DNA of 63,074 bases, filler included, from Reclinomonas americana ATCC 50394 (lineage: Eukaryota): the NCBI GenBank assembly GCA_048213135.1. It is 15 parts of 9 records of this genome, joined end to end, with 100 filler letters (N's around TTAATTAATTAA, not from the genome) between each part and the next. Parts side by side here need not be neighbours in the genome. Positions count along the whole stretch, not along the records: positions 28,696 to 37,103 come from PS015790.1; 14 more parts are not named here. One strand, written 5' to 3'. This document shows positions 7,560 to 63,074 of the stretch, piece after piece; position 1 is the stretch's first letter; each line of letters starts with the position of its first letter. The translations under genes were made by a program, and so were the position numbers. The notes under the pieces were generated by a model. The model saw nothing but the letters and a program-made list of their open reading frames with translations, was not told the origin of the DNA and did no database searches.

Positions 7560-9419
7560 TTACACAAGCAGGACGGCGTTGATGCAGCCGTCGAGTTCGG
7601 GATTGTTGGTGACCTGGGCGTACTTGCCCCACACAATCTACCACGACAAAAATAAGAGTGAGACACGTGCTCGTTCCCCCAGACGTTTAAAAAAACAGAC
7701 CTTGCCACCGGGTGTTACGAGACCGAGATCTGACACGTTGACCTCGAGGATTGTGCCCTTGGTGATGACGCCTAGTGTGGTGAACATGTGCGATTGCGGG
7801 TTCTTCTTCACGCCGATAATGTCCAGGCAGAAGGTTGCCTGTGCGTCAAACACACAAACTTCAGCAATGGGGCGAGAGGGAAAAGAACAAGGGAAAGCAG
7901 AGAGGGAGAGGGGGAGAAAGAGAAAGGATAAGCAATGTCCTGCACGGTTTACGAGTCCTGTACGCATGGAGATGCGAGCGCACAGCACAGACACCATGTA
8001 CAGAGGATATTCTGGGTCGCAACCGAGCGAGTCAACAGGATTAACCAGGTAGATTGCACACGCCGAAGCGCAGTGTCTACCGAGTACTGTTTGACACGAC
8101 AAAAACGCGACCCGTGACAGAGAAAAGGAGAGAGACAAAGAAAGAAAAGAAGCATTNNNNNNNNNNNNNNNNNNNNNNNNNNNNNNNNNNNNNNNNNNNN
8201 NNNNNNNNNNNNNNNNNNNNNNNNNNNNNNNNNNNNNNNNNNNNNNNNNNNNNNNNNNNNNNNNNNNNNNNNNNNNNNNNNNNNNNNNNNNNNNNNNNNN
8301 NNNNNNNNNNNNNNNNNNNNNNNNNNNNNNNNNNNNNNNNNNNNNNNNNNNNNNNNNNNNNNNNNNNNNNNNNNNNNNNNNNNNNNNNNNNNNNNNNNNN
8401 NNNNNNNNNNNNNNNNNNNNNNNNNNNNNNNNNNNNNNNNNNNNNNNNNNNNNNNNNNNNNNNNNNNNNNNNNNNNNNNNNNNNNNNNNNNNNNNNNNNN
8501 NNNNNNNNNNNNNNNNNNNNNNNNNNNNNNNNNNNNNNNNNNNNNNNNNNNNNNNNNNNNNNNNNNNNNNNNNNNNNNNNNNNNNNNNNNNNNNNNNNNN
8601 NNNNNNNNNNNNNNNNNNNNNNNNNNNNNNNNNNNNNNNNNNNNNNNNNNNNNNNNNNNNNNNNNNNNNNNNNNNNNNNNNNNNNNNNNNNNNNNNNNNN
8701 NNNNNNNNNNNNNNNNNNNNNNNNNNNNNNNNNNNNNNNNNNNNNNNNNNNNNNNNNNNNNNNNNNNNNNNNNNNNNNNNNNNNNNNNNNNNNNNNNNNN
8801 NNNNNNNNNNNNNNNNNNNNNNNNNNNNNNNNNNNNNNNNNNNNNNNNNNNNNNNNNNNNNNNNNNNNNNNNNNNNNNNNNNNNNNNNNNNNNNNNNNNN
8901 NNNNNNNNNNNNNNNNNNNNNNNNNNNNNNNNNNNNNNNNNNNNNNNNNNNNNNNGGTGAGTGAACACCCATGATGATGTCGCGTCTCACAAGTAGCTAT
9001 GCTATCTTCTCTTCTCTCTCTCTTGCTTTGCTCCTCCTTGCCACGCAACGATTTCTTCATCTCAATCTTCTCCTGATGCCGCTTCTTGGCAAACAGCTTG
9101 GCGCGCAGACCATGCACGCGCTGTGCGAACTCGGCGCGCTTGTGCACCTCACGAGCGGCCTTCTTGCGCCTGAAGCAGAAGGAAAAAACAAAGTGAGTGA
9201 GACATGTGCACATTCACATCACCTCCACAAACACACAAACACAAAACACCACCACTTCTTGCTCTCCCTTTCGCACACACATGTGCGCGAAAGAATACAC
9301 AGACGTACAGATGAATAGAGTGCGTGAGAGGAAGTGAGGAGACGAAACTGTCGCTCAAAGTGGTCGAGACGCCGACCATGTCGGCTGATCCACCGCTCAA
9401 TGTACTCGTTCTGCGGCAT
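7560..9419 (-). CDS. NSA2: Ribosome biogenesis protein NSA2; middle lies in a gap
   Basis: MPQNEYIE...[40 protein letters not shown]-terminus [67 protein letters not shown]. Confidence 0.97.
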
Positions 9420-10942: not shown

Positions 10943-12513
10943 CATACCTTGTTGCCTGTCATCCGAGTCGCTTTCTTTGTTTTCCGCCGCCTGTTCCTCT
11001 CTTCGCTCCTACCGTAGCACGCTGCATTCCCCCGTCGTATTCCTGCGTGTCACGCGAAGTCGGTTCTTTGTTTTCCGCCGCCTGTTCCTTTCCTCGCTTC
11101 ATCGCTTGGCGTCCTTCTACCGCAGCATTCTTCACCTTGCTGCTTGCAACTATTATGCACGTTGTTTTCCGCCGTCTGTTCCTCTCCTTGCTTCGTTGCC
11201 TGGCGTCCTTTTACGCCAGCGTGCACCTGCTCTCCTTGCCGTATCGCTCCACAATTCTTCTACGTACTTTGTGTGTGGTGACCGCCGATTCTGTCGCCTT
11301 CGCTCCTTCTCCTATTTTTTCTTGCCAATCCGCTCTCCTCGTGCCGTTCGTCGTCTTTTGCTCGTCACATCGCCGGTCACCTTTCTCCTCTTGTCGCCTC
11401 GCTACTTCGTCTTGTTGTCTTCCTCCCTCCTGCGTGTCGTCTTCATTGTGTGCACCCGTTCTTGCTTCCCTCACTCCCTTCTCCGTACCGGTCTGCCGCT
11501 GCTCGCGCTCTCCGCCTGTCTGGTTCCCCCCTCTTCCGTCTCCTCCTCCTGTTCCTGCATGTGCACCCGTTCTCCCCTCTCACTCTCTTCTCCCGTACAT
11601 CCGTCGCCACGCACGCTCTCCCCGCCTCTCTGTTCCCTCACTCTGTGTCCTGCTTGTCAACTTCAATTCGTGCTCATCCCTCGCCCCCTTCTCCTTGCCG
11701 ATTCCCTCACTCCTCCGCTCTACTCCTCCTCCTCGCGCCTCCTCTCCGCTCCAACTGCCACTCTTCATTTCCCCCCTCTCTCTCTCACATACGCTTCTCT
11801 CCATCACCCTGCTTGCCTCTTTCCTCGCTGTCCCCTCTTCTACCTATTTTCTCAACCAATGTCACCCCCACCGCCGTCGGGTATTCTCTCGCATTCCTTA
11901 TGCGATCCCCGAATAATCTGTTGCTGTCGTCATGATGCATGTTGGTTTTTTCGCTCGCCGACCTGTCTATCTCCATCTCCGATGTGCGGATGTGCGTGTG
12001 TGTGTGTCGGCGGGGCGGGCAGCGATAGGAGAATCATACACGCATGCACGTGCAAACTGTCGGTGCGCAGAATCTCACTGCGAAGAGAATTGGTCCATGT
12101 TGTTGTTGGCTGCTGCCGCGCTGCAGGTTATTGGTAGCCATTCGCTGTTGTTTGCGGCGACAAGCGCCGTGTTCGTCGGCACCGACGCCACCCTCAGCAC
12201 CATTCGCGGCAAGAGCGACGTGTACAATGGCATGGTGGCCGGATGCGCCGCTGGCGGCGTGGTGGGCATGCGAAGTTTCGCCAGTGTTTTTGCTGCTTGT
12301 CGGCTGTACACTCATTGAGTGACTGATTGCTTGCTGTTTCTTCTCTTGCTTCCCCCTTCACACACAGTGCAACGGATTCCAGTGGGCGTCGGTGCGTGCG
12401 CGGCCTTTGCGGCCATGGCGGCGGCCGTCGACTACAGCAAGTCATTTGAGAAGTCGCGCAGCGAGCGATTGGAGCGGCAATTGCAGAACGTGCCTGCGCC
12501 GGCCAAGGAATGA
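9842..12513 (+). CDS. NDUFA11: Tim17/22/23-family protein, most like complex I subunit B14.7/NDUFA11
   Basis: Exons 9842-10000, 12128-12274, 12368-12513: GALVGGVFGAVNAAWTDVPAVKR..RASFK|VIGSHSLLFAATSAVFVGTDATLSTIRGKSDVYNGMVAGCAAG. The WxDVPxV motif is recalled from plant B14.7/OEP16-3. Confidence 0.7.
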
Positions 12514-13087: not shown

Positions 13088-16000
13088 ATGGACATGCACA
13101 GTCGCTCTCGAGACCATGTGGTGCGCCTCGTCTGAACATGTCTCTCTGCTGCTCTGACACGAGTGTGCTCATCATCCTCGTCACTCCTCGTTGGCAGCGT
13201 TCGAGAAGGCGATCACATCGCACGCGCTCCACATCGCTTTCTCCTCCCACTTTGCCGCCTTCCACTGGCCACACGTCGTCCTCATCAACGTCACCTCCAC
13301 CCGCCTTTGCAAGCACACCGCCTTTGACAAGGAGCACTGGCAGCAAGAGCGAGTCGAACAAGCACTCTGACGCGTTTATTGGCAGCTCTGATGATGATGA
13401 TGATGATGATGNNNNNNNNNNNNNNNNNNNNNNNNNNNNNNNNNNNNNNNNNNNNTTAATTAATTAANNNNNNNNNNNNNNNNNNNNNNNNNNNNNNNNN
13501 NNNNNNNNNNNCTCTTCTCCAGAGTACGAAGCGCCTCTTGCAGCGCTCGCTGGAGCAAAAAGTAAGCACCACGTATCACCCACTGCGAAGAACACGTCAC
13601 ATTTTCACTCTCTCCCTCTTTTCGCCACACGCAGTCAATCTTTATCAGCCGCGTGAGCCACGAGTTCCGTGGCCCCATCATGGCGCTGTCGCAGCTCATC
13701 GAGGAACTCAGTGAGCACCCGTCGGTCACCACCAATCAAAAGGCCATGGATTTAGTTACTGGTGAGTCGGCGCACTGCCTTGTTCTGCGCTATTGTCGTT
13801 GTTGTGCTCACCACGGCACGCAGATGCACATGGAGCTTGCATCGTGCTGGCCAATCTGGCTGACCAGGCGCTGGAGTACATGAAGCTGGTGCGCCTCTTT
13901 GGTACAGCAACCCTTCTCAATTGTCTTTCTGATCCCTGCGGTGTAACAGGATGAGGACTCGGTTGCCGCAGGTGTTTCGCCAACCGCGCAGGCTGCCAGT
14001 GCCGTGCAGCCACTCGTGCAATCGTGCGCAAACGCCTTTGTATCACTAGCAACACAAACTGGCAAGACATTGAGGGTACTGCTACACTCCGCTCCGTCAC
14101 ACTGCCATGGTTTTTTTTTTGACTAGATCGCCCTCTGCTTGCAGTTGGCTCCACTGACGCCTGAGCTGGACCGCTACGTGTTCCGGGATCAGTCAGCCTT
14201 TATTCGTGTCATGTCCAATCTGTTGTCCAACGCGGGTGCGTGTGCTGTGCTCATTCGCCTGCAGTGTTCCCTGTCTTCCTTGCATGTTCTCATCCGTTCC
14301 CGACAGTCAAGTACACGGAGCGCGGAAACATTGTGGTCGAGGTGATACTGCTGGCCGGTATTCCGCGACCGCACCACATACAAGTGTCTGTCACTGACAC
14401 TGGTGTTGGCATTCGCCCGGAGGATCAGGTACTGTTGTTGCTCATCTCTCTCTCTCTCTCTTCTCTCTTCTCCTTCACTCAATTCATCCCTTGTTGTGCA
14501 CACAGGGCAAGATCTTTGAGCCGTTCGAGCAGGCCGGTTCACCAAACACTGGTCGATATTATGGCGTCGGTCTCGGTGCGTCTCAAGCTCCTTTATCGCA
14601 CGTCATCTGATCACTATCTGAATGTGTTCCTCCTTCTACAAGGTCTGAGTATCTGCCGCGAGACCCTGGCCATGCTTGGCGAATCTGTGTGGGTAGAGTC
14701 GCCGCTGGATGTCGTTGCGGGCACGGGTTCACGCTTCTCCTTCACGTTCCCGGTGCACTTTTCGCCCTCGGATCACGAGAGAGAATACGAAGGTGAGTAT
14801 GTCGGGCATGTCGCGAATTAGCTGGCGATAATGGATCGCTGATATTTCTTTTCTGTGATCTCCGCAGCCTCGTCATTAACACGCTCTCGCGGTGTTTCCA
14901 TGTCGGCGGCTACGGGTACCGCACCGACGCCATCATCATTACCTCCTCGGCTGCTGGCCTCCTTGTCGCAGACGCTGTCGTCGTCCTCGTTTTCGTCAGT
15001 GGCGGCAGCAGCGGCGACGGCAGCGATAGCAGCCGGCGCAGCAACCGCCACGGCGACGTATGCGGTGTCGGATGTGCAGACTGCCGAGCACCAAGTAATC
15101 CATCATCCCGTGCACCAGCGACCCATGTCCAGCCGGTCGGCACTGCCGCCGCGCTACGGGCACACCAGAGACCACCGCTTTCTCCATGCAACGCACCCGC
15201 ACCCGCCGCCGCCGCCACCGCCGCCGCCGCCAGGAGTTGCTGGCGATGGCGGTGGTGCATCGGCGATTCCACCAATGGCCGTGGGTGGTCATCGATCCGT
15301 CGCTGTACCGTCGCCCCTAGCTGACAGCGGTTTCAGTCGGAAGCTGCGAAATCGGCGCGGTCACGTCTCGGGCAGCTCGGTCGAGTCGCGTTCGTCGTCG
15401 CGTACCAGTGGCAGCGTACACACGGGTGGCAGCCAGGAGAGCATCACCTATACGCCTGGATCCACGGGAGTGGTGATGCCCCTGGGTTCGCCGCCGCACA
15501 TGGTGGAGTCGTATCGCGCCTCGGGTCCGCGTGGTCGATCAGTGCCGACCTCGCCAGATCTGAGTCCCGGCCGCACGTCACCCGATGCCAGTGGCAGCTA
15601 CGGCGGCGGTGAGGATTCGCGTGTGGGACGCGGCACACTGCTGGAACCTCCTCGCCTCTACGGCAATCACCATTCGCTGTCGGGACCTGCTGCAGAAGCC
15701 GCGGCAACAGCAGCAGCAGCAGCGGTGGCGACGGCGGCAGCAAGAGGTGCGCGACCGAGGACCGCCACAGCCACACGGTGCAGCAGTGACTCGGCGTCAC
15801 TGACGGCCGCCACCGCCGGCGACGAGTCCTCGCGGGCAAGTTCCGCCGAGCTCGCCGCATCAGAGTCGACCACCGGAGCCACACAGAGCGGCATTTCCAC
15901 CAACAGCACGGTGGCGACTGCAGCTGTGGAGGCAGAATCGCGAACATTCCACGTGTTTGTCTGCGACGACAATCGCATGGTGCTGCGACTTGTCGACAGG

Positions 16001-28595: not shown

Positions 28596-28701
28596 NNNNN
28601 NNNNNNNNNNNNNNNNNNNNNNNNNNNNNNNNNNNNNNNTTAATTAATTAANNNNNNNNNNNNNNNNNNNNNNNNNNNNNNNNNNNNNNNNNNNNCGCTG
28701 G

Positions 28702-29983
28702 CTCACTCGGCGGGCGGTAGTAGCGGTATCTCCTCTCCCGCTGGTGCTGCTGAGGCGGAGGACTCACCAGCGCCCCTCGCGATCTCCAATTCGCGCGTCA
28801 ACTTGGCCACTTGCCTGGCCAGCTCCAGTTCCCGCGTCAGTGTCGCGACTTGATTCGTCAGCTCCTCGTTTCGCCTCTGCAGCGCCGTAATCTGATCGCG
28901 CTGCAGCGCGATCGTGTTGACAAGATCGCGGTGGAACTTGGTCGGCTGCGCACAGAATCAGTGCAAGCCTTCATGCACGCACGAGATACACACACACGCA
29001 CCTGGATGGAGACCATGTGCTGCTGCTGTTGCTGCTGTTGCGTCAGCTGTTGCTGCGGTTGACCGGCAGGTGGCGGCTCAAACGTCGCCCGGCTAATGAG
29101 CCCATCCATGGAGCCAAAGTCATCGAGGCTGCCGACACGCATCAGCGCCATGTAGTTGCCGTGTCCACCATTCGCGCCTTGTCCAGCAGCACCGCCACCC
29201 GCGGCCCACGCATCATCCGCACTCCGATGATGATGCGGCATACCAAACGACGGGACCTTGCATACAAGAAAAGGAATCGGCAAAGGGAACACGAGGCCGA
29301 CAGCAGCGAGGCCAGGAGCATACCTTTTGCAAGGCCACCGAGGAAGGCACCGGCAAGTATGCGCTCGATCCTGTCAGAGAGTGAGGCGGACGTGGCACAA
29401 CAACAGCAGCAGCTGAGAGACGCACCGAGCAAGCTGCCACCCATCAAGTACTGCGAGGTGTTACGAGGTGGCGGAGGCACCACATTCTTCAGATCACGCG
29501 CACGCACCACATGCTGCCTCCTGTTACGCACACACGCACACACACACACAGCAGACGAAGCTCAACACAAAATGATCAATAACCGGAAGAATGTCGCAAG
29601 TAAACCTCTTGCGCAAGTGATTCTGTCGCTCCTGCTCCTTGGTGAGCAGGCGCCGCTCCTCGGCGTCCTCCAGTGCCTTGGCATCGGTCCATGTCTTCGG
29701 CTGCAAACGCGTGAGACAGAGACAGAGACAGAGAGCGCGCGCGCAAAGTGACTCAAGGATCACTCACGGGCACATAGGGCTTCTTGCGATGCCGATTGCG
29801 ATACCGCTGACGATGCTTGCCTGTGAGAGAGCGTGTCACACTCATCAACAAGAGAGAGAGAAAGATGCACATGAACCCACCGCCTCCGTGCTCAGCCGCG
29901 CGCTTCTCACTGACCACCTGTGCACTGCGCACAAGCTCGCCTCCTACTACTGGTGGTGTGCCTGGAGCTGCATCTGCCTCCAT
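28702..29983 (-). CDS. HEXIM-like protein (basic RNA-binding region, PxNT motif, C-terminal coiled coil)
   Basis: Exons 29983-29881, 29820-29768, 29700-29606, 29520-29426, 29370-29324, ~29256-29002 and ~28945-28702 give GKHRQRYRNRHRKKPYVPPKTWTDAKALEDAEERR..PPPPRNTSQYLM..DDFGSMDGLI..LQRDQITALQRRNEELTNQVATLTRELEL. Confidence 0.7.
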
Positions 29984-30063
29984 GTTCTTTCTCGCACAAT
30001 GAGTGACAATCTCGCGCACAGCAGTCTTTGTCCATTGTTTGTTTGTGTTTTGTGTGTGTTGCA
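29984..30063. promoter_or_regulatory. 80-bp bidirectional promoter/5'UTR region between HEXIM-like gene and SPT5
   Basis: ATG 29983 (-) and ATG 30064 (+) with no gap between them. Confidence 0.65.
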
Positions 30064-33000
30064 ATGAGCAGTGACGAGGAGAACGACGAGGCGTGGCAGG
30101 ATGATGACGACGACGATGATGATGTCGATGATGAGGAGGAGGATGAGCGAGGTGCGTGAGATGGCCTCCACAAACAAACAAACACGCACACTCGCGCACG
30201 CACGCAGGGAGAGCGGCGTGTGAGCAATGCACACTGTGTGCGTGTGTGTGTATGTGTGCATGTGGCTGTGAGCGAGAAGAAGAGCGCGTGAGTTTTGTGT
30301 GTGTGTGCGCGCGCAATGTTGAGTTGTCTTTGTGCGTGTGCGTGTGTGCAGCGCGCCCTGTGAAACGTGCCAAGACAAGTGCGACCAAGAAGAGCAAGAG
30401 TGCACGTGGTGGCAAAGGTCGCGGCGGTGGTGGTGCTGGTGGTGCTGGAGGAAGTGCGGCAGGTGGTCTTGGTGGCATGTTTGTGAATGTGGAGGCGGAG
30501 GCGAGTGAGGACGACGAGGACGATGAGGATGAGGAGGATATGGATGATGAGATTGAGGCGGATGAGATTGTCAAGGTGGAAATCGACCTCTGTGTGAAGG
30601 CGACACAGAGACAGAGAGAGAGAGAGACTGATTGTTGTGTTTGACAGGATTTCATTGTGCCCAATGATCGGCGACCGCGGCGGCAGAAGAAGAAGCATGG
30701 AGGGCGTGGGGATGAGGAGGATGAGGATGAGCCGTCGTTGTTGGAGCTGCTGCGGCAGCGGCGAGAGGATGATGATGCGGTGGGCGGACCGGGCATTCGT
30801 GGTATCGATTCGGTCATTCAGCGCCTTCAGAGTCGTGGCGACGACGACGAGGACGAGGATGATGTCATGGCGATGGATGGTGCGTGGGGGACACCGAGGG
30901 AGTGAGAGGAGGGATGCAGGGCCGGCTTGCTGATCTGTGTGCGTGCGTGTGCAGAGATTGACGAGGAGGAAGAGGCGGAGCTGGATAGGCGAGATCAGGT
31001 CGACTATCCGACCCCACACGACCCGAAACTGTTTATTATCAAGTGCAAGGTGTGTTTTTGTGTGTTGGTGGTGCCACTCGTGTCCTCCACCATGCTCACA
31101 CACACGCGTGCGCGCGCGTAGCCCGGCATTGAGCGCGAGGTGACGATGCGATTGATGGCCAAGGCGTCGCGCATGATTGCGGCGAATGGCGGCGAGTTGC
31201 CACCCCGTTGCATCACCTCTGTGGTGGCTCTCGACGCCATGACGGGTCGCATCTACGTCGAAGGACCCAACGACGAAGTCGTCAAGGAGGTGTGTGTGTT
31301 GTGATTTAGTCTTCGTCGCCGTGTGTGTGTGGCCGGCCTCCTCACGTGCGCCGTCGATGCACACAGTTCCTGCGTGGTGTGCGCGACTTGTCGACGTGGA
31401 ACATGCAACTGGTGCCGGTGGACGAGCGTGTGGCCGGCGTCAGTGTCGGCTCCAAGAAAGTTGTAACGGCGTTGAAGGACGGCCAGTGGGTGCGCTTCAA
31501 CCGCGGTGTCAACAAGGGCGATCTGCTGCTGGTGATGCAATACGACGCGGTCCGCCAAATGGCCACGGTGAGGTTCGTACCGCGTGTGGACCCGCTCGAG
31601 GATCAGAAGCGGCAGGCTGCGGCGGCGGCTGCGGCTGCGGCGGGTCGCAGCACGAAGAAGCGAGGGCGCGCCGTTCGTCCACCACCGAGAATGGCAATTC
31701 GTTCCGACTTTGACGCATCGACGTATGCGGTGGAGCCGAAGCCTGATGGGGGGTTTTCGTGGCATCACCACTCGTTCGACAAGGATGGCTACGAGATCAA
31801 GACTGTATCGATCAAGGTGCGGCTGGTGGGGAAAGGGAGGGATGGGAGGGGGAGAGAGAAAAGGAGGGACAGAGAATGATTGACAATATCATCAGTCGGT
31901 ACTCTGGTCTGTGTGGCTTTCTTTTGCTCTCTCTGTATGTGTGGGTAGGAACGAGTTGAGGGGGAGAGGGAGTGGGTGAGAGTTAAGAGGGGAAGCGAGC
32001 GCCTGAGAGAGGGATAGAGATTGTGGCAGTGGTACAGCATCTGTTCTTGGTGCTTCGTTGTGGTCTTTCTCTCTGCGCATGTTTAAGGAAGAAAGAGTTG
32101 AGAGGACGAGGGAAAGGACGTGTGTGCGAGAAAGAGAGAGTGCGGCACATCGTCGTTGCTTGGTGCCTTTGTCTGCGCGCTCTCCATACGTGTGCGTTTG
32201 TATGAAAATGAGAGGGATGGTGATCGTAGTATTAGTTCAGTCAATCGGTGCCCTGGTTTCTCTCTCTCTCTCTCTTCATGTGCAAGTGTGTGTGTTCATG
32301 TCTGTGCGTGACAGAGAGAAAGTGGTGCAGGGTCAGTCAATCTGTTCCTTTGTCTGTCTGTCCTGTCTCTCTCTCTCTCTCACTTTCTCTCTCTCTCTCT
32401 CTTTCCCTCTCTCCACTTTCCCCCGCTCCCCCTCTCCCTCCTTCTCATTTGTGTGCACCCCTCTCACACCGTCCATCACACAGACACTGGAGACGAGGAA
32501 TGTGGAGCCGGCACTCGATGAAATGAAGAGATTCCACGAGGGTGCGGTGGCCAGCGCGGCTGCGGACAAGGGCTCGGGACAGAGCACGCGTGACATGCTG
32601 GCGCGCTCGGCGGTGAAGCGTCAGATTGTCTTTAGCACCGGCGACTCGGTCATTGTGACGTCGGGTCAGTACAAGAACCTGTCGGGCGTGGTGCAGGCCG
32701 TCGACAAGGACACTGTGTCTATCATTCCCGCCGCTGGCTCACAGTTGCCTGTTGCGTATCTTGCTTGCTATTCTGATTCCCCTGTGCGCGTCGTGCTTAC
32801 AAAATGCTGGCGGTTGCAGGGCTCGATTGTGGTGGAGAAATCCTTGATCGACAAGTACTTCCAGAAGGGCGACTCGGTCAAGGTGCTGGCTGGCCGCTAC
32901 GCGGGCGAAACCGGTATGGTCATCAAGGTGGAAACCACACGTGGTGTCACAGTGGTCACCGTGCAGAGCGACTTGTCGACCGAGAAGACGGTGCGTTTGT

Positions 33001-35925
33001 TTCTCTTGTGCTCAGCGACGTACGGCACCTGATGATGATTGCGATGCAGATGGAAGTGTTTGCCGCCGACTTGAAGTTGTCGCGCGATACCTCTACCGGT
33101 GTCGAATCGGCCGGCAAGTTTGCGTTGCATGATTTGGTGCAGTTGGAGTTGCGTATTGTCTGCGAACCCCCCATGGTGTTGGTCATCGACTGATGGTGAC
33201 GGCGCAGTCCCGAGATGTGGGGCATCGTGGTTCGCTTCCAGACGGGAGTCATTGGCGTGATGAATGTGCACGGCGAGGTCATTGAGAAGACGCCGGCTGA
33301 GCTGGAGTTGAGACGCGGCAAGGACTATGCGATTGACCATACCAAGAACCAGTTCCGCCAGAATGACATTGTGCGTGTCGTCGAAGGGCCGAACAAGGTT
33401 TCGTTCCCGCCCGACTGCATCGCATGGTGAGTATTGTTGTAACCCGCGCTGCTGTGCAGGGTCGTCAAGGCACCGTGAAGCACATTTACAGGGCCTGGGT
33501 GTTTGTGCACTCGCGGGAGGTGCCAGACAATGGCGGTGTGTTTGTCGTGCGCTCGCACAATGTGCAAGTGCAGGGCGGAAGAGCAGACAGCAGTGCAAGT
33601 CGCGGAGCCGGTAGTTCAATGGGACCGCCGTCGGCGATGGGTGGTGGTCGCGGCGCAGGTCGTGGTCGTGGTGCTTTCGGTAGGAGCGCGACCGCCCTCT
33701 TTTGTTGTCCCACGTGTTCGTTTGCTCACAGTGTGTGTCATTTGTTGCAGGCGGGCGCTTCGGCAGGGACGAGTTCTTGTACAAGAAAGTGCGCATCAAG
33801 GGACCCCATCAGTTCAAGGTATGTCGGCAGTGCGGCGCGATCGCGGTTGTGTTCACTCGCACATTCTCACACTCCGGTGGCGGTGCGGTAGGGCTACGCC
33901 GGCATGGTCAAGGCCGTCAACGACGACATGTGCACGGTGGAACTTGAATCTGTTTTCCGATCTGTCAATGTGCCGCGTGACAAGCTGCTCTTGGTCAATG
34001 CGTTGCGTACGATGAGTGATGCCACAGCAAGGGTTGACGCCGCTCACAGCTATGTGTGCATGCGTGTTGCAGAGAGCGCACGTCATTTGGTGGTCGCCGC
34101 CCTGGCGAAGACTTTGGTGGCAGTTTCGGCAGCTCAAATATGGACCACGGTGGCTCGATGGGATCGTGGATGCCTCCGCGCACACCGTTGCACGATGGTT
34201 CCGGTGCGTACAATAGTAACCCTCGTGTTGTTGCCGGCAGCTGTGTGTCCCTGTTTGCTTACCATATTCTCTATCCTCTCGCGCACAGCTACGCCCATGC
34301 GCGAAGATGGATCGTCGACTCCATGGGACCCGCGTGCTCCCAACACTCCGGCACGGTGTGTCATGTGCAATATGTCGCGCATCTGTTCAAGGACGAGAAA
34401 CTCACGCACCTCCTCCGCATATCGCAGCGACTCAGACGGCGGAGGCGCCATGTGGGACGCCCGCGTGCCGAACACACCGCGTCACCAGTTGCGTATGATG
34501 AGGGAGGGATGGGAAGGGAACTGAAGTGAATGTGCATGTGTGACTCACACTGTGCGTGCGCGTGCCTCGCAGCTCCGATCGCTTCGACTCGCCGTTCGAG
34601 ATGGGAGTTGCGTGGCTGGAGTTGCCCTTGCACTCCCCCTCTTGACGCGTTCGTCTCACAAGTCTTGCCCGCAGACACCGTACTCGTCGTCGACTCCGAG
34701 CATGCGCGGCAACTCGTCGAGCACACCTGTTGGCTCCTTCTCGGCGCCGTCACCGGCGATGAATGCCTACAGCGACTCGTATGACACGGCCTCGACGCCG
34801 ATGAGTGCGGCCACTCCGTCCATGGTGTCGGGCGTCACACCATCGTCGCGACCAATGGCGCACACGCCGGGCATGCCGGGCATGGGTGCACCGACGCCGG
34901 GTCACACGCTGGGTTTCACCGCCACCACACCGAGCTTCTCGGCACACACACCGATGATGGCTCACACGCCGACCATGACGGCACACACCCCGGGCATGGG
35001 TGCACCGACTCCGGGCATGGGTGCGCCGACGCCCACCATGTCGGCACACACCCCCCTGTCGGCGCAGACACCGGGCATTGGCCTGCACTCACATACACCG
35101 GCCATGGGTGGCATTGGTGCTCCGACACCCGCCGTCAGCTTCGGGTACACGCCCAGCGACACGCCGGGTGTTAATGTTCACGGCTACGCGGCGGCCACTC
35201 CCGGCTACCACTTGCCGAGCGCCGCTGCGGCTCCCACACCGGCCTTTGGTGGTTCTGGTCATTACTCCGCCACACCCGCTGTCGGCTACAGCTCTGCGCA
35301 CACACCTGCCGTCGGCTTCAGTTCGTCGCATACGCCCGCCGTCGGCGGCAGCGGCGGATACTCGTCGTACTCACCAGCTCCGGGCGGTTTCCATCCGGCA
35401 GGCTCACCAGAGAGCTACGGAGGGTGAGTGGCTGTGCGGGAGAGTGATGGGGTTTCTGGGTGTGACTTTGCTGCTGACATTCCCTGTGGGTAGTGTGTCG
35501 ACGCCGGGCAGTTCGACCGTGTCGGAGGGTTGGTTGCAGCCGGGCATGGTTGTGGAGTACAATGGGCAGCGTGGAGTTGTCTTGGAGGTCAAGGACGAGT
35601 CGCGATCTTTCAGTGCCAAGGAGTGGATAGCCACCATTCGCACGGTTCGTGCTGGGTGGTGCGATATGTGTGTGTGGTTTCTTAGGTGCTGTGTTTTTCA
35701 TTCTTTCGGTGTGCACAGAGCGACGGCAGGGAGATACTGGCGCCCATTCACGATGTGCGACCGGTGCCGCCAAACAAGATTGGCGACACGGTGGCGGTAC
35801 TGAGTGGTGCACTGGCGGGACGAGTCGGCAAGGTGTTCCGCCTGTCGGCAGCCGACTGCACACTCGACATTAGCGGTCAACATCACACGGTGCACGTGCG
35901 CGATTTGGTGGTTATGGGGCGATAG
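30064..35925 (+). CDS. SPT5: Transcription elongation factor SPT5 (DSIF large subunit)
   Basis: Acidic N-terminus (FVNVEAEASED), NGN (PTPHDPKLFIIKCK|PGIERE..GRIYVEG), multiple KOW motifs (FSTGDSVIVTSG; KYFQKGDSVKVLAGRYAGETG; VRIKGPHQFK|GYAG), TP-rich CTR, C-terminal KOW; TAG 35923-35925. Confidence 0.97.
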
Positions 35926-37487: not shown

Positions 37488-39166
37488 CTATACCCATATT
37501 CGCTGACAGAAGCGGGAGCCCTCCGACAAGCACGAGCATTGCGTACGATAGCGCTTGATGTAGTCGCCCGAATAGCCATAATTGATCGTCAGTTCCTCGC
37601 CGGGATGGATGGTCCGGCGAGACCGATAGGCCAAGTGCGGCAGCGCCATGCCGCGCTCCGTGTGCACCGCAATGCACGACAGTGACGGGTCGCACGAGTG
37701 GTTGAGCCAGCGAGACACGTTGCCACGGAACATGGCGTCGATCGAGTACTTGCAACCGCCTTCGGCGTACTCTAAGTCGTGCACATACGAGATGCCGTCG
37801 CGATCCGAAATCATGCATCGCCGCTCAGCCTCCAGTGGTGGCAGCAGTTCGCCAGCGTACTCGCAGATGAGCGTGTTCGGAGGAATTGGACTCGACTCGG
37901 CCAGCACCACACCCCATCCTTTGCCGACTTTGTGCTCGATGCGGACTTGCACTTGCAGGCCACCAATCACGCGCCGATTGCGTCGAAATCCACGCTGCAG
38001 CAGCAGACGGCGGTCGGCAAAAACGACCACGGCAATGAGGAAAGTACAAAATCGCGTACCTGCTTCGCGACTTCCAACGACGACAGCGGGCAGCGTGGAT
38101 CCGTGCACTCGAAAGCCCTGTCTGTCACACGATTGTGGAATCGCGGCAGTGCACTCGCCGTGTACGCCGCACGATCCTCGCCAACTGCACCGAGACACAC
38201 ATGCAAGGAGTGATGAGACTGATGCTGCGAAACACACATATGTGGGCACTGCAACAACAATGATGGCGCAACAATTATTGAGTTGGCATACACAGATGGT
38301 GGTACTGACGGTCATTGTCTGCAGGTGCGACACGAGCAACTCGATGGGAAACGAGAAGCCGACAGTGGCCAGCGGGACATACTGGAGGCGGGGATGCCAC
38401 AAGTCAACATCTCTCATCTCTGCTGGCGTGCGACGAATGACACGGAGACGCACATCAATGTACGGAAAAACGACTTGAGCTCCATTGCTGGACGCCGGCA
38501 GGGGAATCGACTCACGACCGAGGGAGATGTCGTCGATGTAAAACTCGATGCGCTCAGTATTCGACGATGGAATTTCCCCCACCTGCAAAAAGGGAGAATA
38601 GTGGGTGCGTGGGAGCGCGCGACATAGGTGACATGACGAGCTGCTCACCGGCGCCAGAATGGCCGTATTAATCGCCTCAAACACCTTGTTCACGTCTTGC
38701 TCGAGCGTGTGAATCGCTCGTACCAGCGACGGCAACGACGGCAACAACTGCCACGACAGACACTCAGCAAGTGGACTTGTCTCTGTGCATCCGCCCTCCC
38801 CATGAGTCGACGGGTGACAAGATGAGACGCGAGTGACATTGTTACATCGCCGCAACTCGTCTCTGCTGCCCGCTGGTCCTCAAAGTTGTCAATCGTGCAC
38901 CACGCAGAGTAGTCCAGTGGTGTAAGCGAGGCCGGGTACACAAACACTCTGCGACAGCGAATCACTTGCACAGTTAGTCACATGGAAGTGGAAGGAAAAG
39001 GTGAGGTGCCACTGACCTCCTGCACACAAACTCGTGCTGTTGACACACTGCCGGTGCCTGGTCGACGTGATGGACGCGGCAGTGACCGCACACGAGGCCC
39101 ACTGGCAGATCGAAGCAGTGATTGGTTGCAAACACCTGTTTGCGACGGCAAGGTGTGTTAACAACC

Positions 39167-44500: not shown

Positions 44501-47461
44501 ACCATTTCCGGAGCTTCGCTCGAGTTCTCCGCACCGACTCTCTCGGTGACCGTCGTCAGCACTTCCACCACTTTGCTGACGTTCTGTAGTACGAAGACAA
44601 GAAGAATCAGAAAATGGGGAAAAGGAAGACGAAGAAAGTGTGCGATTACCTGCAACGCCTCGGAAACGCCGCTCATGGCGTCGACAACGTAGCACGCGGC
44701 AAGATCGTTGCCCGGCCAGGCAGCCAACTGTCGTCGCGCATCGTCGTCATCATCACCACCACCTTCGCCACCGGCAATGGGAGCGTGGTAGGACAGCGCA
44801 AACTCGGCCAGCGCCTCGAATTCGACACGCTCCACATCCACCGATTGCTTCACACTGCGTGCGCTCTGCTTGCGTCCTCGCTTGCCGCCTTCCCCACTTG
44901 CACTGGCCGCAGCAGCAGCAGCGACAGCTTCGTCTTGCTGCTCCGCCACCATGGCCTCGACACGCGGCTTCATGGCATACCGGTACACAAACGGTGCGAC
45001 GGCTCGACGGACGCTCGCGTCGTCGTCGAAAGTGAGTCGAACGACGGCATCCAGGCGCTGTTTTCAGAGTGGAGGAGGAGGAGGGAAGTTAAGAGAAGGA
45101 GGAGGAAGAGAGGAAGTGGGAGGAGGGAGAAGATGGAGGAGAGGGAGAAGAAGAAGAGAAACAAGGGGGCGTACCGTGCGCATGTCGGCGAGGGGATCGG
45201 CCTTGGCATTCACTGGTTTGAGCGCTCGGCCCGACGATGAGGCACGGTCGGGGAGGAGGCCAAGTCTGCATTTTTTGTTCATCACGATCGTCAACAACGA
45301 AGACCTCGCGTCAGCCAGCACGCTACCCCGCACACCACGCAACTCCACGAGACGAGTGAGCAGGCCCATGGCCAGCTTGGCCACTTGCAGATCAACGTCG
45401 GCCACCATCTCCACCAGACGCGGACCGAAACGCTGCAGGAAGCGGGCAAGCTTCGGAATGTTGGCCTCGTTCCTGTAGAGCAACTCAAAGACGCCCAGGG
45501 AGGCCAGACGAACGCTTGCATCCTGCGCGATAGAAGACTCAGCACACATCAACAAGAGAGAGAGAGAGAGAAACGCGCAAGACCACGCACCGCATCGTTC
45601 AGAGTCCAAGCGGCGTACTTGAGCATCTCGTCCTTGAGGAAGACGGCCGGGTGATTGGCAATCCACTTGCCGCTGTTGGTGATGGTGTCCTCGCGAATGG
45701 TCGCCGCACTGTCGCGGTACCGCCGATCCACCACGCTTTCGCACAGCGTCTTCATGAGTTCGTCCAGGCGTGTGAGATCGGCCTCGGCCGCGGCGCTGTG
45801 TAAACGGAGGTAAGTGTGGAGTCATGGGTGTGGACTGCAGTGGCGACGACGACGCACTTTGATTTCTTCGCCGCCGCCTTGTCGACCTGCTTGCGCAACT
45901 CCTGCGCCACCTCCACGCACTCGGCCACGATCGCAAACAGGGCGACACAGGCCGTGTGGCGGTAGGCACGGACAGGGGATCTACGAGGGGTAAGGGTGGA
46001 AGGGTGGGAAGGGGGAGAAGGGAGAGAGTGAGAAAAGGACGTGCGTGCACGGCTGACAGCTGCACGTGGTACGTGGCAGTGGACGCACCCACTGAGAATG
46101 ATTAGCCACGCCAGCACGGTCTCGGAGAATGTCTCGTCGAACAGAGTCTCACGCGCCGACTTGCTGATGAGCTTGGACCAGAACTCGACAAACTGGCGAC
46201 GGAAGTTGCGACCGGCGGTGCCCTTGGCCACCAGTGGATACGCGGTGGTCGCGGGTGGCTGTGCATCTCACCGATGAGTTTTGTCTGCAGTCAACACACG
46301 AGCGCCATCGGCACACACACGCACCTCCTCCAGGTCGGCAATCGCTCCGTCCATGTCGATCTCCTCGTCCAGCACTTGCTCGACAGAGAGCGAGCCCTTG
46401 CCGCCAGCCGCCTGCCAACAACGTTCACGAGGTGAGTCGCACGCACCACCATCATAACAGAGAAAGAAAGAAAGGCACGGCGCAACTTGAATCACAAAGT
46501 TGACGAGCTCCGTCATGGCCTTGTCCTTGGCCTGCCCGTACCGGTGCAGCCAGTCGGTGATGACGGCGACGGTGGCCGGTGCGCGGCCGGATTCGAAGAG
46601 CATGCCTGGGGAGGGGAAGGAGAAGGGAAGAAAAGAGTGAGAGAAGAAAGACGACAGAGGAGAGGAGAGATGACGAATGCATACGCAAGCCAGGGAGATG
46701 TCTCGAGACAAGAGAGGATGTGGGAAACGCAGCAACGAGAACAAGACGGTGCAGCAGGAGATGAAAGCGAGGAAGAGAAGAGAGAAAGAGAAACAGTGAA
46801 CATGCACAGCGGGACAGCGAGATGAGGTAGAAGAAGAAACGAGCAGAAAGATATTGAAGAATCAGAGGCACGAACGAGAGACAAGTGATCCACTCCCTCA
46901 CCATGCAGCGACTTGTTGGCGGCACTCTTTCGTCCTTTCGGAGAACCTCCCGCCGCTGATGCATCCTCCGCCGCTGCCGCCGCACCCTTCTTGCCGCGCT
47001 TCGCCACCGGCTTTGGAGGCGGCATTAGCGCATCGTCCGTCAACGCCGGTGTCTTCTTGCCGCGCTTGCCAGCCGCCGCCTGCGCCTTCTTGCCACGAGG
47101 CTTTCTCTTGGGTCGCTCCTCCTCCTCGTCCTCGTCTTCATCCTCTTCCTCTTCCTCATCGTCGTCCTCATCATCAGCATCGTCATCACTCTGCTCCTCT
47201 GCATCGTCTTCGTCGTCCGCGTCCTCGGGCGGTGAGCTCGGTCCACTCATCACCTGACTGGACGATGAAGATGCCAAGGAGGCTGACGCGCAGACAATGA
47301 TGATAAGGAGAAGGAAGAGGGGGAATGCGAGAGGCAATTCGTTCAGCATTACCTCGCTGACGAGCGGATCGACGCGGTCCAGGTGAATCCACTTGCATCT
47401 CCTCCACGGGTTGTGCCTCCTCTTGTTCTTGTTCTTCCTCCTCCTCCTCCTCCACCACTCG
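41560..47461 (-). CDS. SCC3: Cohesin subunit SA/STAG (Scc3); both ends in gaps
   Basis: DWLHRY..AMTELVNFVIQ|AAG, YPL, WLIILSG|SPVRAYRHTA, RRYRDSAATIR..GKWIANHPAVFLKDEMLKYAAWTLND|..VRL, FLQRFGPRLVEMVADVD. Confidence 0.92.
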
Positions 47462-59379: not shown

Positions 59380-61950
59380 AGGTGCCTCCTGAGAAGCCCG
59401 AGGCTATTGTCATTGTGAGTCCACACTGGCAGACAAGGTAATGGACTTGCTGAATGTACACTCTCTGTCTTCACTCACTCACTCGTGACTCGTCACAGAT
59501 CTTCATTGTATGTTTCATCGCCGGCCAAGTGGAATACGTTCTACGACTTTGGATTCCCGCTGCCGCACTTGTATCAGCTCAAGTATGAGCCGCCGGGAGG
59601 ATCGCCCGAGTTGGTGCAGGAGATTGGTGAGGGAGCATTCTCGATATCTCTGCGCGCTTGTCTCGGTCCCCGCAAGTCAGCGGAAGTTGTCTGCTCCTCT
59701 TCTGATGCATTGTTCGTCAACACTGCCTCTGTGGTCCTTTGTGACTCTCCCTGTCTCGGCAATCTTGCCTCTCTCCTCTCAGGTTGTCTTCTCCTCTGTC
59801 GCTCAACACGCTCCAAGCGCTGCTGCTACCCTCAGGTTTTGTTTGCTCTATTTCTCTGCGCTTTCGCCTCTCTCCTCTCAAGACCGCCGAAGCTGCACTG
59901 TTGTTCTCGGTTCTGGTGACTGCTCACTCTATCGCTTGCCTTGTTCTTATCCCGTTCCCCCTCAGCACTGCCTCAGTGGTCCTTTGTGATTCTCGATGAC
60001 TCTGCGTCACTCCTCTCGAGTTGTCTGCTCCTCTTCTGATGCATTGCCGTCCTCTGCTGCTTGCCGTGTTCTTATCGATCTCCCTCTGGTCAACACGCTC
60101 CAGTCGCATCTTCCGTTGTTCTTTGTAATTCTGCTCTTTGTTGCGTGCTCCTCTTCTGATCCGCACTCTGTCGCCTGTCTTCTTGTCGTCCCTTCTCAGG
60201 CCAACAGTGCTTCTGTGGTCTTCCCTCAAGCCTCACCGCTGAAGTTTTCTGTTCCTTCTGTGATCCATTGCTGTTCTCGCACGCTCTCATGTCGGTTCTT
60301 CGTCTGCCATCCTTCCTCAGTTGCCTCGTCATTCACGGCCTCTCCAGCCCATTGCTTTGTTTAATCGCGCTCTGTTGTGTGCCTTCTTCATTGGCGCACT
60401 CTCTCTTTTCCCGCTGTCTTCAGTGCTTTGCACTTTCCCTCGTCGCTGATCCATTTGTTTGTCGTTTCTCACATCCCCTCCCTCTCCTTCTTCGCCTCAT
60501 TCTTCGCACGCTTCGCTCTTCCTTTCTTGTCTTCTCACACCCTATCCTTCTCCTCGTCGCAGTGTCCCTCCTCTCCGCCGATTTTGGCAAAGAGCTGCGC
60601 GTGGAGGCCAAGAACCGCAAGGAGGGCCTCGATCACGGAGCCTGGGGACCCCTCTATGCCGCCTTCCCTGGCGCCACGGTCCCCGTGATTCAGGTGCGCA
60701 TGCTGTGCTGCACCCTCGCGAACCACGCCCTTCTCATCTTGGTGCAGATTTCGATGGACGCCAGCGACGACCCTCGCACGCAGCTGCAAGTCGGACGCTC
60801 ACTGGCACAGCTTCGCAAGAAGCACCCAGAACTGCTGCTGATCGGCAGCGGTGCTGTTACGCACAACTTGCGGTTTGTCGATCACTCAAGCGCAGTGTTT
60901 CCTCTCTTCTGTCTCATCTTTCCGCCTTCTGTTCTCTATATCTGTCTGTCTCTCTGTCTATGTGTTCTCTCGCGATGTCGTGCTTTCCCATTCTCTTCCC
61001 CTTCCTCCTCTCCTCGCTCTTTCTCTTTCGACGTCAGTCCTTCTCCCTCCCCCTCCTATTTCACTCTCTCTCTCTCTCTCCAAGTCTCTTTCGTTTCATT
61101 CATCTTCACCTTTCCGTTTCCGTCACTTCTTTCTCGCGCGCCCCACCTCACTTCTCCTCTCTCGTTCTCTCTTGTCTTGCTCTTTCATCTTCAGTCCTTC
61201 TCCCTCCTCAGTTTTCTTTTCCTCTCCCCCTCCCCTTGTGTCTCTCAGTCTCTTTTCTTTTTTCATGCTCACTCCCTCCCTCACTTCTCTCTCGCGTTAT
61301 CGCATTCTCTTCTCTTCCCCCTCCCATTCCTTCTCTCCTCGCTCTTTTTCTTCCCCCTCCTCGTTCACTCACTCTCTCTCTCTCGGCTCTCTCATTTCTT
61401 TTCATCTTCGCCTCACTTCTCCCTTCCCTTCTCCCTCCCCCTCCCCTCACTTCTCCCTCCCCCTTCCCCTCTCCACCCCTTCCCCTCCCCAGCGAGGGCT
61501 TCACGGGCATGGACATGGACGTCATGTACGAGGCCGGTGCGAGCACCACCCTCCCCGTCTCCTTCTTCCCGGTGCTGGAGCCGGCGGACTGGGCGCTCGA
61601 GTTCATCGACACGGTGGTGAACAGTCTGCGCAAGGTCGCCGACCCATCGCAGGATGCCGACAAGACTCTGCAACAGAAGCAAGAGGCCGCCATCACCACC
61701 ATCTTCTCCGACCGCATGCTGCTCCGTCGTGCGCACCCGACCGTAGAACACCTGAATCCGCTGTTCTTTGCGCTCGGAGCGGCCTCGGACGAGGATGCGT
61801 CGCCGGTGAGTAAGTTTTGGCGGTGCACGTCCACACGCCGCACCCGATTGCTCACCGTTCTCCATCACACAGCACTCGGTGGCATTCCACGAGATCAGTC
61901 GGTCAATTCTCGGGTCCAACCTGGGCATGGATATCTACGCCTTTGGATAA
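59380..61950 (+). CDS. LigB-family extradiol ring-cleavage dioxygenase (DODA/YgiD type), 5' partial
   Basis: KPEAIVIVSPHW, YDFGFP..LYQLKY, GLDHGAWGPL..FP..VPVIQ|IS, LLIGSGAVTHNL, RAHPTVEHLNPLFFALGA; TAA 61948-61950. Confidence 0.93.
59680..60230 (+). repeat. Degenerate internal duplications in a dioxygenase intron
   Basis: GTTGTCTGCTCCTCTTCTGATGCATTG at ~59686 and ~60020; CACTGCCTC(T/A)GTGGTCCTTTGTGA at ~59721 and ~59966. Confidence 0.7.
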
Positions 61951-62044: not shown

Positions 62045-63074
62045 TCACAACTGTGAAAAGTCCTCGGGTGTTTCGTCGGCGGCCGCTCGCCCCGCACCGC
62101 GCTCCTGTTGCGCGGCATCCAGCCGAATGATCTTGATGGCCTCGTCCTCCGTGATGCGATGTAGCGAGGAGACCTTGTTGCGGAAGGTGATGCCGTAGCA
62201 CGCGTCGGCATGCCTGACGAGCTCCTCACGGAAAGTGGTGGTGATGAACTGCGCGGGGTTCTCGGGATCCTCGGCCAGCTCACGAATGAGCTCGGCGACG
62301 GCGGTGCGGTACGCTGGATCGAGCGCCGCGTCGACCTCGTCAAAGAGGTAGAACGGCGCCGGATCACTTCGCTGAATGGCGAAAATCAGCGCCAAACTGA
62401 CCAGCGTCTTCTGGCCGCCGCTGAGGTGCGACAAGAACTGCGACTGCACCACGCCGGGGAACTTGACGCGGATCTGCACGCCACTGTAGCGCAACTGGCC
62501 ACCGGCACCCGCCGATGGCGCAGCGCTGGAAGATGCACCGTCCTGTGTTGGTGCATGCAGTGAGTCTTCTGACTCCCAGAGGAATTATGTTGCCTCAAAA
62601 CGCAACTTCATCCTCCTGCGACTGCCCGACGGCGCTGCGTATCATGACCATCTGCGCCGATCCACCCGGCACCAGCTTCTCAAAGATCTGCCGGAAGTGC
62701 CCGTCCACCTGCTTGAAAGTGCGGTTGATCTTTTCCTCCTTTTGTGCATCCAGCAAGTCGATCAGCTCGTCAATCGACTGCGACACGGAGAGAGAAACAC
62801 ATGAGTATCACCACCTTCATCCCCACTCCTCCTCCGTCCACCACCTTCACTCACCTTTTCGCCCGCATCGAGCTCCTCCATGCGCTCGTGCAGCTTGTCG
62901 CGCTGGTCGCGAATCTGCTCGAATTGCTCGAGTGCCTTCTTGTTGACGCCAGTGTGCTCGCCGAGCTCATTGCGCAGCTCGTTAAGGCGTTCGTTGAGTC
63001 GCGTCTTCGCCCCGCGACCCTTAAGCTCGTTGCGGTAGTGGTCGACGCGATCTTGCGGGGCGGAGCGCAGGTCG
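62045..63074 (-). CDS. SMC3: Cohesin SMC3, C-terminal part
   Basis: VNKKALEQF, INRTFKQV..F..IFEKLVPGG, YSGVQIRVKF, LSGGQKTLVSLALIFAIQRSDPAPFYLFDEVDAALD, QFITTTFREEL. Confidence 0.97.

Follow-up and report, generated by a model that had tools for sequence, protein, structure and literature searches.

A candidate HEXIM-like gene arranged head-to-head with SPT5 in Reclinomonas americana

Introduction

HEXIM and 7SK together determine how much P-TEFb (positive transcription elongation factor b) is active in a cell. Human Hexim1, as described in PMC12901311, includes, in this order, a poorly conserved N-terminus, a linker helix, the conserved segment 202-PYNTTQFLM-210, which binds Cdk9, an acidic autoinhibitory region, and a C-terminal coiled coil, which dimerises and binds cyclin T1. 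Here we report on a stretch of 63,074 nucleotides of DNA (the window), composed of 15 joined parts of the genome of Reclinomonas americana ATCC 50394 (assembly GCA_048213135.1), and on a minus-strand gene within it whose predicted product is HEXIM-like by its motifs and architecture. The protein is probably a divergent homologue of HEXIM, with membership of the HEXIM family unproven, and its gene stands head-to-head with the gene for SPT5.

HEXIM orthologues and HEXIM-like sequences from unicellular eukaryotes, with a patchy occurrence in a few other eukaryotes, are described in the preprint by Chivu et al. (PMC11482795). According to the same preprint, functionally important Thr, Phe and Tyr residues are missing from many of the non-animal HEXIM-like sequences, the arrival of a key Tyr is linked to stronger pausing, and the rise of HEXIM/7SK control is connected with how promoter-proximal pausing evolved around the time animals arose. 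An earlier note on the window, in which the present locus was singled out, took HEXIM to be mainly characterised in animals; this is correct for experiments, but the HEXIM-like sequences of unicellular eukaryotes had already been reported (PMC11482795). A class of divergent HEXIM-like proteins outside animals is already known, and the present gene is one more. Like many of the sequences in Chivu et al. (PMC11482795), it belongs to a non-animal eukaryote, is HEXIM-like by motif and lacks one important residue, the Tyr. What is new is a clean gene model and the head-to-head pairing with SPT5, an arrangement that goes unmentioned in the passages of that preprint considered here. The gene is a candidate and not a new system.

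Gene model

The gene runs on the minus strand from 29983 to 28703, where seven exons joined by their coordinates give a coding sequence of 891 nt and a protein of 296 amino acids (aa) in a stop-free frame.

28703..29983, minus strand: HEXIM-like gene, seven exons, 296 aa, stop codon included
29881..29983, minus strand: exon 1, with the ATG at 29983-29981; non-conserved N-terminus
29768..29820, minus strand: exon 2, which carries the basic region
29606..29700, minus strand: exon 3, with W56 and the charged, helix-like linker
29426..29520, minus strand: exon 4, which carries PRNTSQYLM
29324..29370, minus strand: exon 5, with part of a split codon at its 5' end and then 15 complete codons
29002..29256, minus strand: exon 6, Gly/Ala/Gln-rich and non-acidic, which holds DDFGSMDGLI
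28703..28945, minus strand: exon 7, with the coiled coil and the TGA at 28705-28703

The six introns are 60, 67, 85, 55, 67 and 56 nt long, and all of them (6/6) are of the GT..AG type. Two carry a GTGCGT donor, of the kind also present in intron 1 of the adjacent SPT5 gene. The G+C content (GC) at codon positions 1, 2 and 3 is 0.70, 0.48 and 0.68, compared with 0.53 in the introns. Transcripts without exon 3 or without exon 5 were ruled out, since the frame meets a stop codon in each case, and for this reason the exon chain is essentially forced; exon 5 is required to carry the reading frame from exon 4 into exon 6. We conclude that this is a real protein-coding gene of seven exons, with an exon chain that was computed and an expression that we infer.

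Some latitude exists at the 5' end of the gene. A second donor of exon 1, at 29911, has the same phase and keeps the frame, giving a protein of 286 aa. Intron 1 (29880-29821, 60 nt) is itself in frame and free of stops; its retention would add 20 mostly hydrophobic residues, and it could be retained as coding sequence. A DNA contig, X1, is colinear with the genome from 28819 to 29522 without joints, as unspliced DNA would be. Beyond the stop codon, the runs of N around the TTAATTAATTAA linker at 28597-28696 (an assembly gap) start after 7 nt and hide the 3' untranslated region and any further 3' exon. On the opposite strand, an open frame of 276 aa extends from 28921 to 29748 (plus strand) and has no Pfam match; it is the kind of shadow frame that is common in GC-rich coding DNA.

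The HEXIM motif in the window and in metagenomes

The segment PRNTSQYLM is the counterpart of HEXIM1 202-PYNTTQFLM-210. Six of the nine residues are identical to those of human HEXIM1, and the changes from T to S and from F to Y are conservative. The six-frame translation of the window (126,144 residues) contains a single instance of P.NT[TS]Q[FY]LM, compared with an expectation of 2.9e-6.

29442..29468, minus strand: PRNTSQYLM, residues 102-110, exon 4

A degenerate DNA pattern encoding P-x-N-T-[TS]-Q-[FY]-L-M matched 106 loci in metagenome contigs. At 82 of these the motif lies in an open reading frame (ORF) of at least 180 aa with at least 15 Lys or Arg (K/R) in the upstream 70 residues, typically in the context ..WKPY..LSWEE..APYNTTQFLM; 10 are cut or divergent ORFs of HEXIM type, and the other 14, short ORFs with at most two K/R upstream, are apparently chance matches. 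PF15313, the Pfam HEXIM family, was the best family for all 24 ORFs tested, 21 of which exceed its 29-bit cut-off; the other three (L062, L094 and L106) reach 21-25 bits. The pattern is diagnostic of HEXIM in public metagenome DNA. With 21 K/R among the 70 residues preceding its motif, the spliced protein falls in the HEXIM class of K/R context. The seven exons of the present gene contrast with the single ORFs of at least 180 aa at 82 of the 106 loci, many of whose contigs may be transcripts.

Position 2 of the motif, Tyr in PYNT, is occupied by another residue in several ORFs of HEXIM type from metagenome and metatranscriptome contigs, as it is in the spliced protein: PRNT in L099, PWNT in L067, PQNT in L103 and PHNT in L046, L062, L094 and L106. 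The PRNT that the earlier note read in place of PYNT also occurs in L099, which scores 105 bits against Pfam HEXIM, so that even unambiguous HEXIM members do not all carry the Tyr. The exact motif of the window, PRNTSQYLM, occurs at none of the 106 loci. A proline run before the motif is common to L062 and the spliced protein; the DNA encoding L062, L094 and L106 is AT-rich (GC 0.30-0.36), compared with roughly 0.58 around the present gene. L062 apparently has no more than some 21 residues ahead of its motif, and its basic stretch is C-terminal.

Landmarks of the predicted protein

From the N- to the C-terminus, the spliced protein presents a basic stretch ending in KPY, a Trp, a helix-like linker, PRNTSQYLM and a C-terminal coiled coil. 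The earlier note had read this order as HEXIM-like, and it agrees both with the human architecture as given in PMC12901311 and with a profile built from HEXIM ORFs of the metagenome set, from which near-duplicates (at least 75% identity) were removed to leave 44 ORFs. The sequence strings quoted in the earlier note are all present on the minus strand, each within a single exon: KHRQRYRNRHRKKPY in exon 2, KTW..K..E..E.R in exon 3, PPPRNTSQYLM in exon 4, DDFGSMDGLI in exon 6 and the heptad coil in exon 7.

29774..29818, minus strand: putative RNA-binding basic region, Arg/Lys-rich, KHRQRYRNRHRKK then PY, exon 2; aligns to the HEXIM basic region and WKPY
29124-29095, minus strand: DDFGSMDGLI, exon 6
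28775..28933, minus strand: coiled coil, residues 221-273, exon 7; in the model a homodimer, parallel and in register

The basic region (residues 36-50) consists of two stretches, KHRQR and RNRHRKK, followed by PY. KPY stands at residue 48 and the Trp at residue 56 (W56, 29691-29689), which hhalign aligned to the conserved Trp of the HEXIM profile; the spacing between the two is one residue above the HEXIM consensus. This KPY..W element (KPY with a Trp 3-6 residues further on) is found in 20 of the 44 HEXIM ORFs, and when the 70-residue stretch upstream of the motif was shuffled 200,000 times, 228 of the shuffles contained it. Its frequency among the HEXIM ORFs is limited to 20/44 because of a group without the Trp. 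In that group (L003, L008, L011, L013, L018, L021, L031, L040, L042, L044, L045, L053, L061 and L065), mostly from contigs of about 1-1.5 kb, RPYYQLTE or RPYYQLSE replaces WKPY..LSWEE and the conserved Trp is gone.

Exon 7 matched coiled-coil families only in Pfam. When two copies of it were modelled together, they formed a parallel in-register dimer over exon residues 5-54 with a score of 0.62, compared with 0.00 for the best of three controls, a pass that may reflect model memory, as coiled coils resemble many solved dimers. Among proteins solved as pairs of one chain, 21 of 30 attained the mark applied to this score, as against none of 23 solved as single chains; among eukaryotic proteins the corresponding counts were 17/29 and 0/30. 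Contact agreement between runs was at least 97%, and the predicted local distance difference test value (pLDDT) of the partner was at least 78. The modelled interface follows one heptad register, with L, I, Q, I, L, N, L, V, L, L, A and A at the a/d positions. A search of the PDB by sequence with exon 7 returned seven weak matches (E 0.12-0.86), chiefly to coiled-coil or helical proteins; HEXIM was not among them.

Profile comparisons with HEXIM

Against the spliced protein, the 44-ORF profile scored 13.1 bits in HMMER with a large composition correction, a value reached by none of 2000 global shuffles. The matching domains appear in HEXIM order, one spanning the basic region, KPY and the motif (residues 35-110) and the other the coil (residues 200-266), where L..RN..L of exon 7 is aligned to L..EN..L of HEXIM. 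A profile of the central region scored 22.0 bits against residues 1-125, and this was reached by 0/2000 global shuffles and by 2/2000 shuffles within 12-residue windows (local shuffles). Local alignment with hhalign paired profile columns 63-278 with residues 35-260 at a probability of 82% (P 1.1e-5, score 43.7, against a maximum of 30.4 in 100 local shuffles), and aligned KPY, the Trp, the motif and, in the coil, L..RN..L with its Asn; GSM-DGLI of exon 6 was paired with MSK..LI of HEXIM at low confidence. The spliced protein shares with animal HEXIM1/HEXIM2 (PF15313), which inhibit the elongation kinase P-TEFb in a 7SK-dependent manner, the basic region, (K)PY..W, the helical linker, P-x-N-T-[TS]-Q-[FY]-L-M with six of nine motif residues identical, and the C-terminal coiled coil with its aligned Asn and, as modelled here, its parallel dimer.

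Several observations weigh against a relationship to HEXIM. The share of the motif in every profile score is circular, because the HEXIM set was fished with the motif itself, and when the motif was masked by X or shuffled in place, the hhalign score fell to 23.0 and the probability to 2.6%. Although the masked score is above the maximum of 22.7 seen in 100 global shuffles (mean 12.6), it lies within the range of 100 local shuffles (mean 19.9, standard deviation 4.5, maximum 30.4). A significant profile match to HEXIM, the check that the earlier note called for, is not supported beyond the motif, where the score is at the level of locally shuffled sequence. Similarly, a profile of the basic region and linker without the motif scored 3.7 bits, which 69/2000 global and 295/2000 local shuffles reached. 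Applied to the full protein, the central-region profile gave 12.8 bits, below L094 (22.3), L106 (19.2) and L062 (17.0); since these fragments, at 21-25 bits in Pfam, beat the spliced protein on this surrogate profile, it probably falls under the 29-bit cut-off of Pfam as well. Single exons 2, 3, 4 and 6 (queries of 20-85 aa) matched neither HEXIM nor any other Pfam family at E<=10. Individual features also depart from animal HEXIM1/HEXIM2: Arg occupies the position of the Tyr in PYNT; a Tyr lies between KHRQR and RNRHRKK, where HEXIM has Pro-Ser; xPY and the motif are 53 residues apart, compared with 30-37 in the 44 HEXIM ORFs, making the linker 17 residues longer; the acidic region is missing, with 0-2 Asp/Glu per 20 residues over residues 101-220; and the block F..KDF...Y.......L..MSK..LI, conserved in the 44-ORF profile, is absent or degenerate. 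In the coil, a single-register heptad test over 55 residues was not significant, as 10 of 16 positions agreed and 873 of 5000 shuffles did equally well.

Pairwise comparison did not bring the spliced protein closer to the divergent metagenome ORFs, with phmmer scores of at most 12.4 bits for L062, L094, L106, L103, L067 and L099. Nor did broader searches return relatives. Exon 6 had no match at E<=0.001 among 1.84 billion representatives searched with HMMER, and a word-based search for longer proteins containing it produced 2489 candidates, none at E<=0.01; in the ESM Atlas it gave 0.76, which is noise. The bridge to a plant 'PRLI-interacting factor' family that the earlier note suggested from DDFGSMDGLI finds no support here: exon 6 lacks relatives, and the low-confidence hhalign pairing places GSM-DGLI on a block of HEXIM itself. 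Of 19 papers bearing the name of that family, the ten listed concern plants or plant pathogens, and two literature matches that paired HEXIM with Arabidopsis were spurious, one to 'cyclo-heximide' and the other to an entry in a reference list. A 41-aa open frame containing exon 4 drew four candidates in a word-based search, none at E<=10, and exon 4 had no match in a PDB sequence search.

The putative kinship with HEXIM accordingly rests on the nine-residue motif, KPY..W, the K/R-rich context and the order of the parts. Diffuse sequence similarity to HEXIM was not found, and common descent is thus unproven. Such similarity is commonly lacking in disordered, motif-based proteins. Membership of the HEXIM family is not established, because the Tyr of PYNT, the acidic region and the F..KDF/MSK..LI block were all looked for and were not recovered in recognisable form.

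The SPT5 neighbour

The HEXIM-like gene and the SPT5 gene diverge from start codons that are 80 bp apart. We presume that this interval functions as a shared bidirectional promoter. SPT5 is itself a P-TEFb substrate, and in the window it carries a long C-terminal run of Thr-Pro repeats, which we take to resemble the C-terminal repeats phosphorylated by CDK9-type kinases. The start of SPT5, an ATG at 30064, is a prediction, because the Spt5_N match is weak (11.8 bits); in the ESM Atlas an SPT5 fragment matched SPT5 clusters only.

29984..30063, no strand: intergenic interval, 80 bp separating the divergent start codons
30064..35424, plus strand: SPT5, with an acidic N-terminus, KOW domains and Thr-Pro-rich C-terminal repeats; head-to-head with the HEXIM-like gene
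31310-31876, plus strand: SPT5 KOW1 (Pfam)
32007-33029, plus strand: SPT5 KOW2 and KOW (KOW2/3) (Pfam)
33367-33888, plus strand: SPT5 KOW4 (Pfam)
33892-34521, plus strand: SPT5 KOW5 (Pfam)
34525-35424, plus strand: SPT5 Thr-Pro repeats (AHTP/APTP), long C-terminal run

Interpretation

Judging from motifs and architecture, we consider it quite probable that the spliced protein is related to HEXIM. That it is a highly divergent HEXIM-like protein still acting on a CDK9-type kinase, by analogy with the animal proteins, is a proposition on which the balance appears to us even. If it does act in this manner, the basic stretch would bind a structured RNA, PRNTSQYLM would dock on the CDK9-type kinase, and the C-terminal coiled coil would form a parallel dimer and contact a cyclin, all by analogy with HEXIM1. 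The combined effect would be restraint of the elongation kinase that phosphorylates SPT5 and RNA polymerase II. Because the Tyr is replaced by Arg and no acidic region is present, such control would probably be weaker than in animals, or not gated by RNA in the animal fashion.

The same two differences could also be explained by a true HEXIM relative that is no longer, or never was, inhibitory, and that serves as an RNA-binding, dimeric nuclear adaptor in which the motif engages another partner or persists as a relic. Losses among the important Thr, Phe and Tyr residues in many non-animal HEXIM-like sequences, as described in PMC11482795, would be in line with this, as would the missing acidic region, which has a role in autoinhibition of HEXIM1, and the missing F..KDF/MSK..LI block, with which, by the boundaries in PMC12901311, the cyclin-T-binding coil would begin. 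On the other hand, the motif retains its Thr, Gln, Leu and Met and has Tyr for Phe, PRNT also occurs in the Pfam-grade HEXIM L099, and a site beside SPT5 fits, if weakly, a role in elongation. We therefore regard a non-inhibitory relative as possible but somewhat unlikely.

Further removed is an unrelated nuclear coiled-coil protein, whose basic stretch would serve as a nuclear localisation signal and whose nine-residue resemblance to PYNT would have arisen by chance or convergence. Coiled coils and basic patches occur widely, the searches with exon 6 returned no relatives, the similarity beyond the motif is no better than that of locally shuffled sequence, and with many windows scanned, rare chance matches are expected somewhere. 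Against these points stand the expectation of just 2.9e-6 occurrences of the motif in the window, the correct placement of KPY..W (p about 1e-3), the order of all elements, which is that of HEXIM, and the finding that, among the 106 metagenome loci, every match with K/R-rich sequence upstream is of HEXIM type, while the 14 others had at most two K/R there; taken together, these make an unrelated protein decidedly unlikely. Very improbable, in our estimation, is the absence of a real gene or an incorrect model, whether because open frames in GC-rich DNA happen to line up or because the true transcript differs. The 276-aa antisense frame and an intron 1 equally able to code would speak for such an error, but six uniformly short GT-AG introns with compatible phases restore one frame of 891 nt, GC at third codon positions lies above that of the introns, the antisense ORFs have no Pfam match, and the functional-looking motifs all fall within exons.

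A related protein that may still restrain a CDK9-type kinase thus remains the interpretation we favour, and it bears on how old this form of control might be. The 7SK-like RNA and pause-control system that the earlier note proposed for this lineage is speculation. We think it unlikely, though worth stating, that the CDK9-inhibiting module of basic region, PxNT and coil predates the animal 7SK system or is more widely distributed than it, and works here without the Tyr, without acidic autoinhibition, under a promoter shared with SPT5 and with a gating RNA not recognisable as 7SK. Were this true, and the organism outside Holozoa, HEXIM-type pause control would have arisen earlier than the published 'holozoan origin' model places it. 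If another protist does have a functional inhibitor of HEXIM type, it would provide a simple system for the ancestral module before the Tyr and the acidic region, and would address which RNA, if any, gates it. The significance would be greatest if the organism lies outside the close relatives of the animal lineage.

Other features of the window

Domains of kinase, cyclin, La, Bin3 and NELF type were found in none of the 245 ORFs scanned in the window (most of at least 90 or at least 100 aa, two shorter). Rfam detected no 7SK in the window and no family at its gathering score; at E<=1 it listed six weak matches to miRNA (microRNA), isrG and SCARNA7 models (20-30 bits), which are noise. The remaining genes recognised by Pfam in open frames of the window, none of which is part of the 7SK/P-TEFb system, are the following.

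7641-8996, minus strand: ribosomal protein S8e
11917-12315, plus strand: Tim17 family
14165-14818, plus strand: HATPase_c
37491-38879, minus strand: SET domain
45755-46267, minus strand: STAG (cohesin subunit)
60160-61617, plus strand: LigB-type dioxygenase
62048-62584, minus strand: SMC N-terminal domain

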